The notes beneath the pieces are model-generated. The model saw only the letters and a program-made list of their open reading frames with translations. It searched no databases and was not told where the DNA came from. From an uncultured Acidobacteriota bacterium (lineage in GTDB: Bacteria > Acidobacteriota > Blastocatellia > RBC074), in the NCBI GenBank assembly GCA_963794955.1, contig CAWCGF010000014.1:11201-75200 (forward strand): DNA of 64,000 bases, in the 5' to 3' direction. The position numbers and the translations under genes were made by a program. Shown here piece by piece: positions 55,664-63,698 of the stretch (its first letter is position 1; the number at the start of each line of letters is the position of its first letter).

Positions 55664-56056
55664 TTACCGCCCGCGCGTTGCCGCAATTAAAGCTTCCATA
55701 TGATTCAGATACCGTTCCAGTGCCTTACGGCCTGAGACTGTTACTTTAAATTCAGTTTTTGGAATGCGTCCATCAAAGGATTTAGTGCAAACGATATATT
55801 CCGCTTCTTCAAGTTTGCGCGCATGCACGCTCAAGTTACCATCGGTCGTATTGAGCAAAGCTTTTAAGTCATTGAAAGTCATGGATTCATTGACAGCCAG
55901 CGCGCTGATGATGGCGAGGCGCGTACGCTCGTGAATCAACCGGTCGAGTTCGGTAGTTTGAGCCACTTTCACCGAGGCAGAAGCGAGGGCTTCTGGTTTG
56001 CGCTGCCGCTGCGTTTCTTCGGATTTATCTTGTAGTAAAGCGTTGTTTTTAGCCAC
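55664..56056 (-). CDS. Winged-helix transcriptional regulator (ArsR/HTH_34-like)
   Basis: [24 protein letters not shown]. Confidence 0.9.
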
Positions 56057-56660
56057 CGTGTTTCCTCGCTATGATGATCCCGAAAATAATGTGGAAGATG
56101 CCAAACCCTATCGCCATTAAATAGTTTCCCCACGCCCAGGGACAAAATAGAGTAATTGCTCCCAACACCATAAAGCAGAGTCCCATGACAGGAACGATTC
56201 GAACTGAAAACGCTCCCCCGGTAACTACTCCCGTGCCGTAAAGCAGCAACCACATCCCAGGCAAAAAATCCGGTCGTTTGATTTCCCAGATCACGATTGT
56301 TAGCAACGCACCTGCCACCAAAGGAGGCGTGAGGCTTAATAGGAATTTCCGCGCGGGCGTAGAAAGGAGCGAGGATTCTGCCGCCCTGGCTTTTCGGTTC
56401 ATAGCAAAGATCGAAACCAATAACGAAACCAGGGCAATGCCCAGCCAGCTTAACAACCAGCGTTTCTGAAAAATCACTTGCGTTGTTACCTGCGCCCCGA
56501 ACATCGCAATCATCCCTACGACCACCAGTCCCCAGCCCGGGACAGCCGTAAAAGCCGAAGCCTTTTCCATCGTTTCGCGGATAAAGCGCAAATTATCCAT
56601 CGCGCGATCATGGAGCGCAGGCGGATCAGGCAATTTTCGAATGGGCGTTACATTGCTCAT
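56049..56660 (-). CDS. Conserved-looking multi-TM membrane protein
   Basis: [28 protein letters not shown]; overlaps the regulator start. Confidence 0.8.
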
Positions 56661-56667
56661 GCCTCTC

Positions 56668-56714
56668 ACTATATTCAAATTACTTTTCCCGTCAAGCACT
56701 TTATTCTATAAAGC
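56668..56714 (-). promoter_or_regulatory. Sigma70-like promoter TTGACG-N16-TATAGT with adjacent operator ACTTT-N7-AAAGC
   Basis: -35 at 56695-56690, -10 at 56673-56668, palindrome 56698-56714. Confidence 0.55.
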
Positions 56715-56790
56715 GCATTTCCCAAAGGAAGCAGAAGTAAATCAACGACTGCGCCGCTTAGGAAAAAGTTGAAGCGGGACGAGAAACATG

Positions 56791-56819
56791 TTGACGCTTC
56801 AGGATTTGGCGGCTAATAT
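56791..56819 (+). promoter_or_regulatory. Sigma70-like promoter TTGACG-N17-TAATAT
   Basis: Near-consensus hexamers with 17-nt spacer upstream of the structured region. Confidence 0.6.
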
Positions 56820-56888
56820 CTCGGCTGCGTCAGAAGCAATCCTCCAAATTTACAGAAATAATTCACTCTTGCTTCACGCAAACTGCTA

Positions 56889-57325
56889 TTCCTTTTGACC
56901 TCACTTTCGGCAAATTTTCAGGTCGTTTTTAGGAAGCCGCTTCGTATCTGAGCACTTACCCTTCGCGGGTTTCACTGGGATAAGCTATGAGTTGAAAGAA
57001 TCTCTCCAGCGGAGGGAATCATCGCTCAAGCTTATGATGAATGTTCCTCACCCCAAGTATTGCCCGTTGCCAGCGGTCGCGGTGATTTGAGCTAGGTCGT
57101 GGTTGCTCCCGCAATTACGGTTGTCGCCCTGTGGTGCCCCATCGCGTGCGACATTCCCTAGCTCATCACTGACAGCAACGGGTTTACAAAGGTCGGCGTT
57201 CGCCTGGGATCTATAGATACGCTGACCTTTGATCCCCCGAGGCATTCATGCCTCGGTGATCCAGTGGGCTGCGCCCGCGCGACTAGGGGCGCAGCCATTG
57301 GATAGGCGCAGGAACGGCGCTGAAA
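56889..57325 (+). ncRNA. Candidate large structured ncRNA or leader (family not recognised)
   Basis: At least seven consecutive helices with G-U wobbles on the + strand; no credible ORF. Confidence 0.5.
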
Positions 57326-57704
57326 CTCCTACCCTTTTAGACAAACCATTGAAACGTGAATTTAGACGATGAATTTGTGAAACCTATCTGAGACTATGGC
57401 GTGAAAGAGGTCGTGTTTCGAGTAAATCCTAGTTTTACTAACAGCTAGGTTACGAGCAACCAAGCTTCCCTAATAGTGGCGGCCTCTGAAGAGAAAAACA
57501 AGCTGGCTTCGGTCAACTTAGCTGTGGTATAGTTTGGCTCCGAGTTAACTGGAATCAGCCCTTCCATTAATCTCCAGATGCTCTTAAAATTATCCACCGT
57601 ACTGACAAAAGAAGTTATCGCGTCCCCCTTCAATCGCAGGTCCCACATTTGATAATGCTGAGTTCGACACTTCAGTAATGAACGGAAACGGAAAGTAAGA
57701 TCAC

Positions 57705-58919
57705 ATGGCAGAGTTCATTTGCAGGCTTGGAACCCCAGCCGGAGAAATCGTAACCCGCACGGTAGAAGGGTTATCCCTGGATGAATTGCGCCTGCGGTTA
57801 AATAATGAAGGCTATAGTATCTTTTCCGTTGAATCGGCAGGGGGGGTCACCTCGCTGCTGGGCAAATCAAATCGCCACGTCAAAATTAAAATGGATGACT
57901 TCTTGCTCTTCAACCAGCAATTAGCCGCGCTCATCCATGCGGGATTACCCGTGTTGCAATCCATTCAGATGCTGCGTCATCGCTCCCCCAGCCCCAAGCT
58001 GCGTGAAGTGTTGGGAGATGTCGAATCACGCATTAAGTCTGGGGTAGCCTTATCAGAATCCTTCGCTGCACAAGGCGAAACTTTTCCGAAAATTTATATT
58101 GCGTCAATCCTGGCGGGGGAGCGGTCTGGCAACCTGGATGAAATTTTACGTCGGTATGTGATCTATACAAAAGCAATGGCAGCGATTCGACGGAAATTGC
58201 GCAGCGCACTGACGTATCCAGTTATCCTGCTGAGCGCCTCCGTTATCTTAATTGCTGTCTTGACGACTTATGTGATTCCGCAATTTTCCTCCATTTATGA
58301 CAATGTTGGGACCAAACTTCCGTGGATCACCGAGATGGTTGTCGGTCTATCCTCTGCCGTTCGTAACAATCTGCTCTGGTTAGTTCCTACCATTGTCATC
58401 TCGATCTTCGGTCTTTGGTCGTGGCGCAAAACAGAAAACGGGCGACGCACGATGGATCGGATGATCTTGCGGATTCCGATTGTGGGCGAGTTAGTGCGAC
58501 AGATGACCACAGCGCAATTTACCCGCAGCCTGGCAACATTGCTGGCAGGCGGGATTACGCTGGTCGAAGCCTTTCAGATTGCCTTGGCTTCAATCACCAA
58601 TCGGGAATTGCTACGCATTTCCGAACCAGCTTTGCCGAAGGTTCGTGAGGGAAAACCCTTTACCGAAAGTTTGGCAGGCGCAGGCTGGGTGCCGGAATTA
58701 GCGATAGATATGATTGGTGTGGGGGAACGTTCCGGTTCGTTGCGCGAAATGCTGGAAGAGGTTTCCGGGTTTTATGACGCTGAGACCGAAGTCAAACTAG
58801 GGCAACTCACCACCTTCATCGAGCCAGCCATTCTTATTTCGATGGGGGCAGTTGTCGTGACGATTCTGCTGGCGATTTATCTGCCATTGCTGACAATGAT
58901 GGGCAATGCAGGCAAATGA
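57705..58919 (+). CDS. pilC: Type IV pilus / T2SS platform protein PilC/GspF
   Basis: FNQQLAALIHAGLP, AGERSGNL, ALTYP, GERSGSL, IEP. Confidence 0.93.
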   Translation: MAEFICRLGTPAGEIVTRTVEGLSLDELRLRLNNEGYSIFSVESAGGVTSLLGKSNRHVKIKMDDFLLFNQQLAALIHAGLPVLQSIQMLRHRSPSPKLREVLGDVESRIKSGVALSESFAAQGETFPKIYIASILAGERSGNLDEILRRYVIYTKAMAAIRRKLRSALTYPVILLSASVILIAVLTTYVIPQFSSIYDNVGTKLPWITEMVVGLSSAVRNNLLWLVPTIVISIFGLWSWRKTENGRRTMDRMILRIPIVGELVRQMTTAQFTRSLATLLAGGITLVEAFQIALASITNRELLRISEPALPKVREGKPFTESLAGAGWVPELAIDMIGVGERSGSLREMLEEVSGFYDAETEVKLGQLTTFIEPAILISMGAVVVTILLAIYLPLLTMMGNAGK

Positions 58920-58963: not shown

Positions 58964-60589
58964 ATGGCAGAAGCGAAAGAAAAAATTACTCAAATAGCCG
59001 AACAAGCCCACGCGGAGCAACTGGCCACGCGCTATCGCTTGAACTTCGTAGATTTAGAAAAATTTCCGATTGATTATGCGCTCGTACAATCACTGCCTGT
59101 TGACATGATGCTGCGGAACAAGTTCGTTCCGCTGCAAAAAGAAAACGGACACATGGTGATTGCCATGGCGGACCCGTCCGACATTCCGCTGCTGGATGAA
59201 TTACGAGCACAGCTCAAAATCCAACTCCGGCCTGCTGTGGCTACTCGCACCGCCATCGAAGCGGTACTGAGGAAAGCAGACGCTTCAGATCGCGTATTTG
59301 CCGAAGCAACCGAAGGCTTTCGCGCCTCGCTTATCAAAGAGACGGAAGGCGGCGGAGAAGAGATTGTTGATCTGGAGCGATTATCCAGCGATGCCGAGAT
59401 GTCGCCGATTATCCGACTGGTAGACACGGTGGTCTTCACGGCGCTCGAAAAACGGGCTTCGGATATTCACATCGAAACACGCGATACGGACGTGGCCGTA
59501 CGCTATCGTATTGACGGCGCGTTGTATGAAGCGGGCGAGCCGATTGACATCAAGCATCACCAAACGATCATTTCCCGCATCAAGGTCATGTCCGAATTGG
59601 ACATTGCCGAACGTCGCGTGCCGCAAGATGGTCGCTTTCGGATGCGGATCAAAGGTCGTCGTGTGGATTTCCGTGTTTCTATCATTCCATCAGTGTATGG
59701 CGAAGATGCCGTGATTCGTATCCTCGATAAGGAACAAATCAACGAAGACTTTAAAGATTTAAAATTGGATGTCGTCGGCTTTGACCCGACCTTGCTCGCA
59801 GGCTTTCGTCGGTTTATTCATGAACCCTACGGCATGGTGCTGGTTACGGGGCCAACCGGTTCGGGGAAGACAACGACGCTGTATGCGGCGCTGAATGAAA
59901 TTCGCAATGATGAAGACAAGATCATCACGATTGAAGACCCGGTCGAATATCAATTGCGTGGCGTCATGCAAATTCAGGTGAATGAGAAGAAAGGGCTGAC
60001 GTTTGCGCGCGGACTGCGTTCGATGTTGCGCCACGATCCTGACAAAATCATGGTCGGCGAAATTCGTGACAATGAAACCGCGCAAATTGCGATCAACTCC
60101 GCACTCACCGGACACCTTGTGTTTACGACCGTCCACGCTAACAACGTGATTGACGTCATTGGGCGCTTTATGAATATGGGCGTCGAAGTCTATAACTTTG
60201 TGTCAGCACTCAACTGTGTTTTGGCGCAACGCCTGGTGCGCATGCTATGCGCACGCTGCAAAGAGCTATATCGTCCAACTGAAGAAGAATTTAATGAATC
60301 CGGCCTGCTTTCCGCGCGTTACACAGAACAGGCATTCTATCGCAGTGTGGGTTGCGAGGTTTGCAATCACACTGGCTATCGAGGCCGTACGGCCATCCAC
60401 GAATTACTCGACCTCTCGGATAACATTCGAGAGTTGATTATTGCGCGTCGGCCCGGGTCTGAAGTCCGACGTGCCGCCCGCGAAGAAGGCTTGGGCAGCT
60501 TGCGCGAATCGGCGCTCCGCCTGGTGTTTGAAGGGCAAACTACTTTGCACGAAATCAACCGCGTCACATTTGTCGAACCAGTAAACTAG
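58964..60589 (+). CDS. pilB: Assembly ATPase PilB/GspE
   Basis: ASDIHIE, PQDGR, GPTGSGKTT, RHDPD.IMVGEIRD, tetracysteine motif. Confidence 0.95.
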   Translation: MAEAKEKITQIAEQAHAEQLATRYRLNFVDLEKFPIDYALVQSLPVDMMLRNKFVPLQKENGHMVIAMADPSDIPLLDELRAQLKIQLRPAVATRTAIEAVLRKADASDRVFAEATEGFRASLIKETEGGGEEIVDLERLSSDAEMSPIIRLVDTVVFTALEKRASDIHIETRDTDVAVRYRIDGALYEAGEPIDIKHHQTIISRIKVMSELDIAERRVPQDGRFRMRIKGRRVDFRVSIIPSVYGEDAVIRILDKEQINEDFKDLKLDVVGFDPTLLAGFRRFIHEPYGMVLVTGPTGSGKTTTLYAALNEIRNDEDKIITIEDPVEYQLRGVMQIQVNEKKGLTFARGLRSMLRHDPDKIMVGEIRDNETAQIAINSALTGHLVFTTVHANNVIDVIGRFMNMGVEVYNFVSALNCVLAQRLVRMLCARCKELYRPTEEEFNESGLLSARYTEQAFYRSVGCEVCNHTGYRGRTAIHELLDLSDNIRELIIARRPGSEVRRAAREEGLGSLRESALRLVFEGQTTLHEINRVTFVEPVN

Positions 60590-60659: not shown

Positions 60660-63600
60660 ATGAGAAAACAAATCAATTTCCGAACTGTACTCACATTCCT
60701 CATCATTGTGTGTCTCAGTCTTCCCTTCCCAGTATTTGCCGATAAAGTAGATACGAAAAAAGCCAAAAAGAATTTTTCGGAAGGAATGAAGTATGAGGTG
60801 GAGGAAAAATGGGACTTGGCTGCCCAGGCTTTTCTTTTGGCGGCGGTAGCAGACCCTGGTAATGTTGAATACAAGCTCCACATGCGGCGCGCAATGGAAC
60901 AGGCCTCGCGCATGTTCGGCAAACGCGGCGACACATTTGCTGCGGAGAATGATTTTGCGAGCGCCTATACAGCATACAAACAGGCCTTTGCTTACGATCA
61001 AACGAACGAAGTGATGTTTGTAAAAATGAAGCGGATGATTGAGTTGCAAAAAGCGGCTGCCGGGCTTGGTGATTCGCCGAAAATCAATCCTAGTACGGGG
61101 AGCTATCTGCCCACCAGCGCGGATGTCGCAGCGCCACAACAGCAACGCTCCCGCTCGAAAGACTTGGCCACAGTAATCCATTATAAAGACCAACCGCTCA
61201 AAGGTGTCATTCAAAACATTGCTAAGCAACTTAACCTCAATGTCATTTTTGATGAGACCTTCCGTGATGAACCGAAATACAACCTGGAGCTGCAAAACAC
61301 GACGTTATCGCGCGCGTTGGATTTCATTTTTATCCAGAAGAAATTGACCTTCGAGCAATTGGATCGCCGGACAATATTGATCTACTTCGATAACCCCACC
61401 AATCGGCAGCGTTTTGAACGGCTGTTGGTCAAGACCTTCTACATCAACAACGCCAAACTTGAAGAAGCGCGCCAAGTGGTGCAGCAAATGTTACAGGGGG
61501 GCGGCGCAGGTCTGATGCGGCAAATTGCCGCGTCCGTACAATTGAATGCGCTGATTGTCCGTGCTCCGGCAGAAGACCTCAAAATGGTGCAGGACGTGCT
61601 GGAAAGCATTGATAAGAATCGCGCTGAAGTCGCAGTTGATGTGGAAATTTATGAGGTCACACATAACACCAGTCAACAAATAGGCAATCAGGTAGCGATT
61701 GATCCGCTTACCGCCAGTGTGCCTATTCGCACGGTTGATGCCCGCGGCAATGTCACGACCACTTACCGAGAAGGCCCCTCAGGCGGCCTGAATAATCTGG
61801 GCGGCATTGGGCAAAGCTTATTGTCGGCAGCCGCTGTGATTGGGGGGAACACACTTGGCATTGGTACCGGTTTCGGCGCTTTATTAGCTGCGCCGCCAAC
61901 AACCTTGAGTCTCTTGCAAAACAAGACCAATGCGAAATTAGTCAGCCGCGTCAATATCCACGCGATTGATGGACAGTCGAATAAAACTAATGTTGGGCGT
62001 CGCGTCCCTGTGAATCTTGGTTATTCCTATCCGCAAGGCGTTTATGCGGGAAATACCACTACGCCGGGTGGGATAGGAACGACTACAGGTGCTGGTGGTT
62101 TGGGCGGCGCGTTGGGTGGTCTGGGCGGAGGATTTGGCGGTGGCATCAGCAGCTTCCAATATCAGGATGTGGGCTTGAATATTGACATCACGCCCACTGT
62201 TACAAATGAAGGCTATATCGAAATGAAGATGACGCTGGAGTCTTCTTCTGTCGTACCGGGTTCGGGTGGTTCGACGCAAACACCGGAATTTACACAGCGC
62301 AAGCTGACGACGATTTCGCGGGTGCTGGACGGCAGGACCGCTGTTGTGGCAGGCGTACAACAGCAAACTAAAACCGACGGACGCAGCACGATTCCGGTGA
62401 TCGGCATGATTCCGATTTTAGGCCGCTTTGTTACCACGCCGAAAGAATCGGCGGATATGAGCGATATTGTGATCACGGTCACCCCGCATATTATTCGCGC
62501 TCCTCAGCTAGAGAAAAAAGACCATCAGGCCAAAGATAGCGGCACCGGCCTGGGGGGCAACTTTGTGAGCATTGAGCAAGTCGTGATGCGCGCCCAGGAC
62601 GAAGATGACCAGGATCGTCGCATCATCGCTGCGCAACAAGGTCAGCCACTACCCGCGCAACCGACAGAAACCGTGACAACGGTTTCCGCGCCCATAACAC
62701 AACCTGCTGCGCCCGTTGTTCCGGCTGTCGTCCAACAATTACAACCAACGCCAGTGACGGCGAAGGCGGAAGATACCCAGGTAAAACCGCAGCCCGCAGT
62801 AGATCAGCCTGCGAATAAACAAGAACCGAAGCAAACTAAAGAACCGGAGCCAGAGAATAACAACGTAATTAATGAAGCTAATACTGATGATGGGGGCGTT
62901 CCTCCGCCGACGTTTGAACCGCCGCCCGGCTATTCGCCCAGATTGATGCCGCCCTCTATCACGCCCGAACAACGAGCGGCGTATGAGGAAGCACGTGCTA
63001 AAGCGGCAGAAGAGGCGAGAAAGAATCCGCCGCCTGCGCCTGATCCGACTAAAGACCAAGGCGTACCAGCACCAACTTTCGAGCCACCTCCGGGTTATTC
63101 ACCCAAATTAACTCCTCCGGTAAAACCCAAAAAAGAGAAGGAAAAATCCGCATCTCCGCAATCCGCTCAGAATGAGTCCAAAGAACTGAGCCTGGCGGCC
63201 CCGCCCTCGACTGCGATTGAAGTTTCAGCGACTGAGATGTCGTCGAATGCGGGAACCTCCCCACCGCTTGGACTGAGCCTTAAGCTCAAAGAAAAGAAAT
63301 TGCAGATGGGAGAAACCTTCATCGTAGTAGTTTCCGTGGATGGCAAGTCCAAAATGACCGGCGCGAATATTGCGCTGAACTACAATACCAATTTGCTGCA
63401 ACTTAAATCAGTGCGTGATGGAGGAATGTTGGGAAGAAACCCGGATATGACCCAGCAAGAGAAAAACGGCAAGCTGATTGTCAGTGTGCAACAAGTAAGT
63501 GATCGCGTTACCCCTGTCATGGCGAATGGCAAGTTACTCATCCTCGAATTTAAAGCTATCGGCGTTGGGCAAACGATGATCGGGTTTAATGCGGATGAGA

Positions 63601-63698
63601 CACGATTCCTGGTGGCGGATAAAACCAGTCCGCAATTCAGTGTTGCGCCCGTACAATTTGAAATCAGCCGCGAGGCCATTTCTAAACTGACGAAATAA
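60660..63698 (+). CDS. Secretin (GspD/PilQ) with N-terminal TPR-like region, Pro-rich linker and C-terminal cohesin-like domain
   Basis: YQDVGLNIDITP, IPILGRF, DIVITVTPHIIR; C-terminal GKLLILEFKAIGVG. Confidence 0.9.
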   Translation: MRKQINFRTVLTFLIIVCLSLPFPVFADKVDTKKAKKNFSEGMKYEVEEKWDLAAQAFLLAAVADPGNVEYKLHMRRAMEQASRMFGKRGDTFAAENDFASAYTAYKQAFAYDQTNEVMFVKMKRMIELQKAAAGLGDSPKINPSTGSYLPTSADVAAPQQQRSRSKDLATVIHYKDQPLKGVIQNIAKQLNLNVIFDETFRDEPKYNLELQNTTLSRALDFIFIQKKLTFEQLDRRTILIYFDNPTNRQRFERLLVKTFYINNAKLEEARQVVQQMLQGGGAGLMRQIAASVQLNALIVRAPAEDLKMVQDVLESIDKNRAEVAVDVEIYEVTHNTSQQIGNQVAIDPLTASVPIRTVDARGNVTTTYREGPSGGLNNLGGIGQSLLSAAAVIGGNTLGIGTGFGALLAAPPTTLSLLQNKTNAKLVSRVNIHAIDGQSNKTNVGRRVPVNLGYSYPQGVYAGNTTTPGGIGTTTGAGGLGGALGGLGGGFGGGISSFQYQDVGLNIDITPTVTNEGYIEMKMTLESSSVVPGSGGSTQTPEFTQRKLTTISRVLDGRTAVVAGVQQQTKTDGRSTIPVIGMIPILGRFVTTPKESADMSDIVITVTPHIIRAPQLEKKDHQAKDSGTGLGGNFVSIEQVVMRAQDEDDQDRRIIAAQQGQPLPAQPTETVTTVSAPITQPAAPVVPAVVQQLQPTPVTAKAEDTQVKPQPAVDQPANKQEPKQTKEPEPENNNVINEANTDDGGVPPPTFEPPPGYSPRLMPPSITPEQRAAYEEARAKAAEEARKNPPPAPDPTKDQGVPAPTFEPPPGYSPKLTPPVKPKKEKEKSASPQSAQNESKELSLAAPPSTAIEVSATEMSSNAGTSPPLGLSLKLKEKKLQMGETFIVVVSVDGKSKMTGANIALNYNTNLLQLKSVRDGGMLGRNPDMTQQEKNGKLIVSVQQVSDRVTPVMANGKLLILEFKAIGVGQTMIGFNADETRFLVADKTSPQFSVAPVQFEISREAISKLTK

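Follow-up and report, generated by a model that had tools for sequence, protein, structure and literature searches.

A conserved structured RNA of about 480 nt upstream of the pilC operon in one uncultured genus of Blastocatellia

Introduction

What fills the 1-kb gap upstream of the pilC-pilB-secretin operon of an uncultured acidobacterium, and is it connected with the operon that follows? The gap lies in the window analysed here, which is the whole 64,000-nt stretch of DNA from contig CAWCGF010000014.1. A preliminary description had proposed for 56791..57535 an unrecognised non-coding RNA or a long regulatory leader; on re-inspection all of the features that it listed were found at the positions it gave, and the proposal is supported by homologues, compensatory changes, the absence of an Rfam match and strict linkage to pilC.

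Layout of the locus and promoter P1

The gap had been described as devoid of a credible ORF, and indeed no ORF longer than 67 aa is present in 56700-57704, the open frames being unconserved in 13 homologues. The upstream ORF is listed as 216 aa on the - strand from a GTG at 56699; the ATG at 56660 is a likelier start, with a ribosome-binding site (GAGAGG) ahead of it and, at 56695-56668, a promoter on the - strand (TTGACG-16-TATAGT). A Pfam search with the 216-aa protein returned no match.

An alignment of 12 sequences revealed conservation that begins approximately 35 nt upstream of a -35 box and breaks off sharply where the last hairpin has its base. It starts with a block at 56757..56790 (+ strand; CTTAGGnAAAAG ... 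AAAACATG), further upstream of which the sequences are unalignable; this A-rich block could be a UP-like element or a regulator site. Directly downstream lies P1 (56791..56819, + strand), a sigma-70-type promoter composed of TTGACG (56791-96), a 17-nt gap and TAATAT (56814-19), which had been noticed by eye and was also caught by a consensus scan (9/12 matches). The -35 hexamer is invariant and the -10 hexamer is TAATAT in 10 of the 12 aligned sequences; the probable transcription start is near 56826.

Architecture of the RNA

The helices, all on the + strand, are described from the 5' side. Helix 1 (56826..56880) joins 56826-29 to 56877-80 and 56833-39 to 56869-75; four of the seven pairs of its inner stem carry changes on both sides, 94-98% of the cells are paired and the loop holds an invariant CCUC (56841-44). 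Helix 2 (56896..56925), GACCU/AGGUC, closes a loop in which UCGGCAA (56907-13) is invariant in 13/13 sequences, the stem itself being nearly unvarying and therefore uninformative on covariation. An alternative pairing of this loop with the P4 strand GUUGCC, judged by eye, showed one-sided changes and two breaks and was dropped. Helix 3 (56976..57055) pairs UGGG (56976-79) with CCCA (57052-55), and pair 286/377 of the RNAalifold alignment changes from GC to AU in two sequences; it encloses a hairpin (56980-57036) that varies in length and sequence and forms in 10 of 12 homologues by minimum free energy (the thirteenth, G008, was left out). A C-rich linker (UUCCUCACCCCAAG..., 57044..57062) with near-invariant columns comes next, and its 3' part is the CCCA strand of helix 3.

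The multiloop domain (57063..57182; 92.9% of cells paired) is closed by P4 (57063-70/57175-82), which is never broken, and contains P5 (57081-96/57157-70), P5a (57097-57120), P5b (57122-27/57148-53) and P5c (57131-36/57140-45), the last with a CCC loop. It is followed by P6 (57187..57231), a 12-bp hairpin with the invariant loop GCCUGGGAU (57202-10), whose stem is 100% paired, with four pairs varying on one side and one on both. The adjoining AUCCC (57232..57236) is a candidate pseudoknot strand with GGGAU (57206-10) as its possible partner; this pairing is compatible with the alignment (98% of cells paired) but shows zero compensatory change, and the pseudoknot is left unclaimed. Hairpin P7 (57237..57256) has both-side changes in 2/7 pairs, and P8 (57259..57303), the long G+C-rich terminal hairpin, has them in 7/15 and carries the invariant loop GCGACUAGG (57279-87), with conservation stopping at its base. 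The multiloop with its closing stem and inner helices is thus present as previously claimed, as are the helices placed at 56897-56924, 56980-57036, 57187-98/57220-31, 57237-56 and 57259-57303. No T run follows P8, and the consensus scan found no terminator on the + strand in 56500-57800. More than 300 nt in length, with covarying multi-helix junctions and many invariant unpaired nucleotides, the RNA has the defining features of large ornate bacterial non-coding RNAs.

Fold, strand and evidence of selection

The preliminary description had allowed that the folding energy might prove no better than that of dinucleotide shuffles. Folding of 56820-57340 on the + strand gave -203.7 kcal/mol, a value equalled by none of 100 shuffles; these averaged -166.3 (sd 7.1), which corresponds to a z of -5.29; the - strand of the same segment gave a z of -4.64. 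For the next 400 nt (57305-57704) the z was +0.75, which sets the end of the structured part at about 57304 and confines the excess structure to approximately 56826-57304. Together with the conservation and the RNAalifold prediction, this delimits a structured RNA of about 480 nt (56826..57304, + strand). RNAalifold predicted 102 pairs from the 12 sequences, 24 of them with compensatory change on both sides.

The helices were additionally drawn by hand and counted on three plain MAFFT blocks, with the 3' partners slid by 1-3 columns as the control. Pairing occupied 91.1% of cells in the block of 5' helices (31-43% when slid), 92.9% in the multiloop plus P6 block (35-53%) and 95.9% in the P6-P8 block (32-45%), and pairs changed on both sides numbered 5 (2-3 when slid), 12 (1-7) and 10 (2-5), respectively. 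A few rows are misaligned in these blocks, so that pairing is undercounted. Shuffle controls exceeded the observed values of paired cells, covariation score and both-side changes in 0-7 of 500 trials, a significance that is overstated for related sequences; with 13 sequences from one genus, the covariation rests on few independent events.

The paired columns contain 131 G·U and 20 A·C cells. This excess, together with P1, identifies the + strand as the RNA strand, and the G-U argument made earlier for that strand holds. In ten relatives the RNA is 67-80% identical to this window over its full length, while the fourfold-degenerate sites of pilC in the same ten genomes are 28-38% identical and hence saturated; by this comparison the RNA is as constrained as the protein gene.

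Comparison with known families and tests of other identities

A search of the whole window with the 4227 covariance models of Rfam 15, which include RNase P, tmRNA, SRP, 6S, OLE, ROOL, GOLLD, HEARO and raiA as well as c-di-GMP-I/II, T-box and group I/II introns, gave 0 matches at the gathering thresholds, in agreement with the earlier view that hallmarks of RNase P, tmRNA, SRP and c-di-GMP-I are absent. When 56600-57750 was searched at E up to 10, only five chance-level matches appeared (19-21 bits against thresholds of 35-78), neither c-di-GMP-I/II nor any other riboswitch family being matched in the gap, and the 12 homologous loci gave 0 matches at E <=0.01. Housekeeping identities were rejected, the genome having its RNase P RNA (RF00010, 279.5 bits on C45), tmRNA (RF00023, 151.4 bits on C21) and 6S RNA (RF00013, 64.6 bits on C43) elsewhere, each scoring above its cut-off; likewise, ARAGORN reported no tRNA or tmRNA in 56000-58000. 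An Hfq-type base-pairing small RNA, of approximately 50-300 nt with a U-tail terminator, was also set aside, the RNA being about 480 nt long and having no U tract after P8. The RNA is a new family within a known kind, the large ornate bacterial RNAs of unknown function; literature on Blastocatellia non-coding RNA and on structured intergenic RNA of Acidobacteria held nothing on the element in its titles and abstracts.

A protein-coding reading was rejected, the two longest ORFs having no Pfam match and no frame being conserved in the 13 homologues. The possibility of a mobile-element remnant, raised in the preliminary description, found no support: the element is single-copy, conserved terminal repeats are absent, and a MITE or similar small mobile element was discarded on one copy in its own genome (BLAST) and one model match per genome in 12/12 positive genomes. 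The sole end-to-end inverted pair (56743-58/57285-57300) is 81% complementary and has one arm in unconserved sequence. Phage and plasmid records showed no similarity, and viral contigs no pattern match.

Distribution

By BLAST, a single copy is present in the genome of the window itself (46 contigs, 7.49 Mb). When the 1-kb gap was compared by BLAST with 40 relatives, 56757-57304 was found in 11 of the 13 other genomes of the same genus (68-79% identity), and nothing was found in the 27 genomes of other genera. Wider searches used the 3' domain, modelled by covariance over 176 positions with 54 pairs. In the family sample of 87 genomes including this one, which is also the order-level sample, this model was positive in 11/13 genomes of the same genus and 0/73 of other genera, the unpublished genome G015 being counted among the 73 negatives; in the class sample the figures were 6/6 and 0/144, and in the phylum sample, in which the genus was not represented, 0/150 genomes of other genera were positive. 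The filters were strict and only part of the first-look candidates were scored, so that weak relatives could be missed among these negatives. A model search with the filters off at 19 pilC loci of other genera gave a best score of 16.7 bits, inside pilC itself.

When 185,579 species genomes were scanned with a pattern of two motifs, 12 stretches were hit, of which 11 are identical over the 300 nt compared to loci already known, 10 of these 11 being titled 'MAG: Blastocatellia bacterium'. The pattern match L040, in a record titled Pirellulaceae, had no model match and was put down to chance. The record of L039 is titled Heliobacteriaceae, likewise a name from another phylum, and carries a true copy of the RNA (178 bits); the title therefore probably mislabels a Blastocatellia contig. 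A metagenome scan added one sequence, L041 (141.5 bits), bringing the total to 13 distinct sequences. In these searches the RNA is confined to one uncultured genus of soil Acidobacteria, in the class Blastocatellia (Acidobacteriota).

Linkage to the pilC operon and the promoters of the operon

The first gene of the pilC-pilB-secretin operon encodes a pilC/gspF-type platform protein (57705..58919, + strand; Pfam T2SSF, E 4e-51). The RNA is followed by this gene, in constant orientation, in 13/13 cases (this window, 11 relatives and L041, whose PilC is 80% identical), whereas at least five different arrangements are seen on its upstream side. This window and six relatives have the 216-aa protein, an HTH_34 regulator and UppS there; two genomes have a long - strand ORF, one has a + strand ORF of 355 aa, another a - strand ORF of 218 aa, and L041 has groES-groEL. 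The two genomes of the genus in which the RNA is absent (90% and 67% complete) also have no orthologous pilC and pilB, the best pilB match in them being a 45% paralogue; this joint absence reflects either co-loss or an unassembled locus. Further along the operon, the secretion ATPase (58964-60589) carries MshEN, a domain of a known c-di-GMP-binding type, at its N terminus, and the secretin (60660-63698, 1012 aa) has a cohesin domain at its end, an unusual feature in such a protein.

Of the 86 other genomes of the family, 80 (one of them G015) have a PilC orthologue with an identity of 68% or more, and the other genera examined have a gap of only about 480 nt ahead of pilC. The upstream neighbour of pilC varies in those genera as well, being a divergent protein with two FHA-like repeats in one genus (L062 and L066) and a 340-aa same-strand protein of no obvious family in others (L053 and L071); synteny thus breaks repeatedly at the upstream border of the pilC regulatory region.

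Between P8 and the pilC start codon the sequence falls into distinct parts. The spacer (57305..57377, + strand) is unalignable and measures 52-148 nt in the 13 sequences; C exceeds G in 11 of them but not in this window, and in one relative the spacer is G-rich. In L010 (about 1693-1760, + strand) and L012 (about 1290-1427, - strand) the spacers carry insertions, one a (TGGTTGG)n tandem repeat and the other a long inverted repeat with a T-rich run behind it, a possible terminator. Beyond the spacer, outside the RNA and in the context of the pilC operon, stands an ECF-sigma-type promoter motif, TGAAAC-N16-CGTG (57378..57403, + strand), which was found ahead of pilC at 29 of 30 loci of the family (those of the window and of L043-L071; 0.07 expected by shuffling), 240-407 nt from the gene; at the thirtieth locus only 233 nt are available. 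The motif matches the ECF-sigma promoter consensus of TGAAAC with CGTA/CGTC given for B. subtilis in PMC5758882. From its near-universal occurrence, the pilus/secretion operon appears to be under ECF sigma control throughout the family.

Closer to pilC, a AAAAACAAGCTGGCTT block (also written AAGCTGGCTT) with an extended -10 element occupies 57494..57533 (+ strand) and is shared by the genus and some other genera, one large genus having a different motif at the equivalent of 57494-57533. The extended -10 itself, TGTGGTATAGT (also written TGGTATAGT; 57523-33, + strand), marks a probable second promoter ahead of pilC and is conserved in the genus and some other genera; the earlier suggestion that pilC is driven separately from this place is supported, and the ECF-type promoter lies in the same upstream region. 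The pilC-proximal 330 nt thus carry motifs common to several genera. As these motifs are conserved in genera that have no RNA, the operon promoters are the older part and the RNA with P1 an extra unit; the RNA lies downstream of P1 and upstream of the two conserved pilC promoter motifs, so that most operon transcripts would bypass it. An expression platform was looked for: the + strand has no terminator-like site, and the RNA stops about 400 nt before the start codon. Nor was a consistent pairing found between the RNA and the pilC ribosome-binding region, the duplexfold sites varying by genome, having long interior loops and being uninformative.

Occurrence in RNA libraries

Among the public runs that contain part of the stretch, three, from three studies, are recorded as RNA libraries; ten DNA runs with small word shares do not enter the comparison. 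Compared with 56500-58000, the RNA-library contigs (151-272 nt, depth 2-4) cover 56892-57043, 57076-57252, 57175-57296 and 57197-57347 at 87-99% identity. The contig on 57197-57347 spans the end of P8 (108 nt on the 5' side, 43 nt on the 3' side), and another runs on beyond 57296 into 73 nt of unlike sequence, as the divergent spacer of a relative would give; these contigs hint at transcripts running past P8. Contigs from four runs are absent on 56619-56891 and 57348-57878, an absence that is uninformative. The contigs show that the sequence occurs in RNA libraries but cannot prove transcription, ends or strand, being shallow and possibly derived from DNA carry-over.

Interpretation of the RNA and its alternatives

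The reading towards which we lean, at a confidence a little short of even, is that the gap holds a new stand-alone RNA gene of about 480 nt with eight helices that is functionally tied to the pilus operon. The structure, strand, conservation, non-coding nature, distribution and linkage of this RNA are established by the results above, whereas its ends, its stability, its partner and any effect on the pilus operon are inferred. The RNA would be transcribed on the + strand from a sigma-70-type promoter of its own, with a start near 56826, and would be a separate unit that was added upstream of an older, self-sufficient pilC-pilB-secretin promoter region and has been locked to the operon since. 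It would be a stable RNA whose invariant exposed loops (CCUC, UCGGCAA, GCCUGGGAU and GCGACUAGG) may, with the C-rich linker, dock a putative partner, probably a protein that is part of or controls the pilus/secretion apparatus, as in the case of OLE RNA with its Oap proteins. Transcription probably extends tens of bases past the last hairpin, and P8 would set the mature 3' end. A stand-alone RNA is favoured by the sharp 3' boundary at the base of P8 with its unalignable spacer, the hairpin at the 5' end, the long G+C-rich hairpin at the 3' end and the strong-looking promoter, and by the operon's own promoters downstream, which are conserved in RNA-less genera and would leave most operon transcripts without the RNA; those genera have only the gap of about 480 nt, in which the model found no match even with the filters off, and the RNA-library contigs on 56892-57043 and 57076-57347 fall within or just beyond the RNA. 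The fixed place beside the operon, upstream of pilC in 13/13 cases with at least five upstream neighbours, suggests a partner in the pilus machine, as does the joint absence of the RNA and pilC/pilB from two genomes. Against these points, P8 has no intrinsic terminator and one contig bridges its end, both of which fit a leader equally, and pilC, pilB and secretin work in other genera without the RNA. That the RNA is more specifically a dedicated subunit or controller of the T4P/T2SS-like machine, forming an RNA-protein particle with the PilB/PilC/secretin apparatus or with its ECF-sigma control circuit, or else a ribozyme that acts on this system, is a doubtful extension to which we give a small chance; no pilus or secretion system is known to have an RNA component.

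A long cis-acting leader is a close rival, only somewhat less probable, for the same observations. P1 transcripts would then run through the RNA and spacer into the pilC operon, and the fold would sense a ligand or protein and set read-through, for instance through a Rho loading site that it uncovers or masks in the C-rich spacer, as a third and genus-specific input to the operon. The adjacency in constant orientation despite the changing upstream contexts, the missing intrinsic terminator and the contigs that pass the end of P8, here and by 73 nt in a relative, are all consistent with this, and the excess of C over G in 11 of 13 spacers is kept as a hint; but about 400 nt with two conserved promoters separate the RNA from the start codon, an expression platform is not apparent, C-richness is missing from the spacer here while that of one relative is G-rich, and no riboswitch family matches even at E 10. 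Known riboswitch leaders are also about half the size of this RNA. If the RNA were instead a ribozyme, an RNP scaffold or a self-assembling RNA unrelated to the pilus operon, with adjacency a matter of history, its own promoter, sharp 3' boundary and many invariant unpaired nucleotides would be accounted for, and the synteny breakpoint upstream of pilC, present in other genera too, means that new DNA can lodge there; we consider this unlikely, as the adjacency has outlived at least four rearrangements of the upstream flank and the RNA and operon are jointly missing from two genomes of the genus. Very little probability falls to the view that the element is no RNA at all and represents a mobile-element relic or a cluster of protein-binding DNA palindromes: the helices can equally be read as palindromes and the - strand also folds well, but there is one copy per genome with neither inverted nor direct conserved terminal repeats, phage, plasmid and viral collections gave no match, the ratio of G·U to A·C cells is unexpected of DNA palindromes, and compensatory changes preserve pairs 110 nt apart, so that this reading is already largely refuted. 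Small protein-coding genes, to which the short ORFs of up to 67 aa might point, are scarcely credible, given that Pfam gave no match, that from one to another of the 13 homologues the longest open frame changes its strand, frame and place, and that the indels do not come in threes.

Comparison with known systems and significance

Bacterial RNAs of such size and structural complexity are rare, and this one is tied to a pilus/secretion operon, a machine without a known RNA partner. Although young, being confined to a single genus, it is constrained like the neighbouring protein gene and thus offers a view of how a complex RNA originates and becomes fixed; the narrow range (13 sequences) and the lack of cultured hosts restrict the evidence and make follow-up harder. 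Wherever the function of a large bacterial RNA of this kind has been worked out, the RNA has proved to be a ribozyme, an RNP core or a self-assembling particle. Self-assembling particles among the large ornate bacterial RNAs are described in PMC12286853.

Closest in character is OLE RNA (RF01071), a large ornate RNA with Oap partner proteins (PMC3413148, PMC12286853). Both RNAs are large, ornate and many-helixed, with invariant unpaired nucleotides and a narrow taxonomic range, and each has a fixed place beside particular genes of membrane-associated function; they differ in length (about 600 versus 480 nt), phylum and neighbours, show no match in sequence or structure, and the partner is putative in the present case. 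ROOL and GOLLD, for which PMC12286853 reports homo-oligomeric assembly, share with this RNA the size class, complex junctions and a biological role that is unknown for both, whereas Rfam shows no match between them and this RNA has no phage, plasmid or viral match. ROOL and GOLLD themselves are often phage- or prophage-linked. The raiA-motif RNA lies consistently upstream of one gene and yet is regarded as a transcript of its own rather than a riboswitch. The present RNA likewise stands consistently upstream of one gene, although it has no Rfam match to raiA, is more than twice as long and comes from different phyla.

Among regulatory leaders, the c-di-GMP-I/II (GEMM) riboswitches resemble it in their position ahead of pil/T2SS-type genes, and the operon ATPase has an MshEN domain; in contrast, the RNA has no match to them at E 10, is several times larger, has no expression platform and is separated from the gene by promoters. 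The Mg2+-sensing mgtA leader is a long Rho-controlled leader, and the two loci have in common a structured 5' region, then a C-rich stretch and no intrinsic terminator; at the present locus, however, pilC has its own promoters downstream of the element, and the C-richness of the spacer is not universal.
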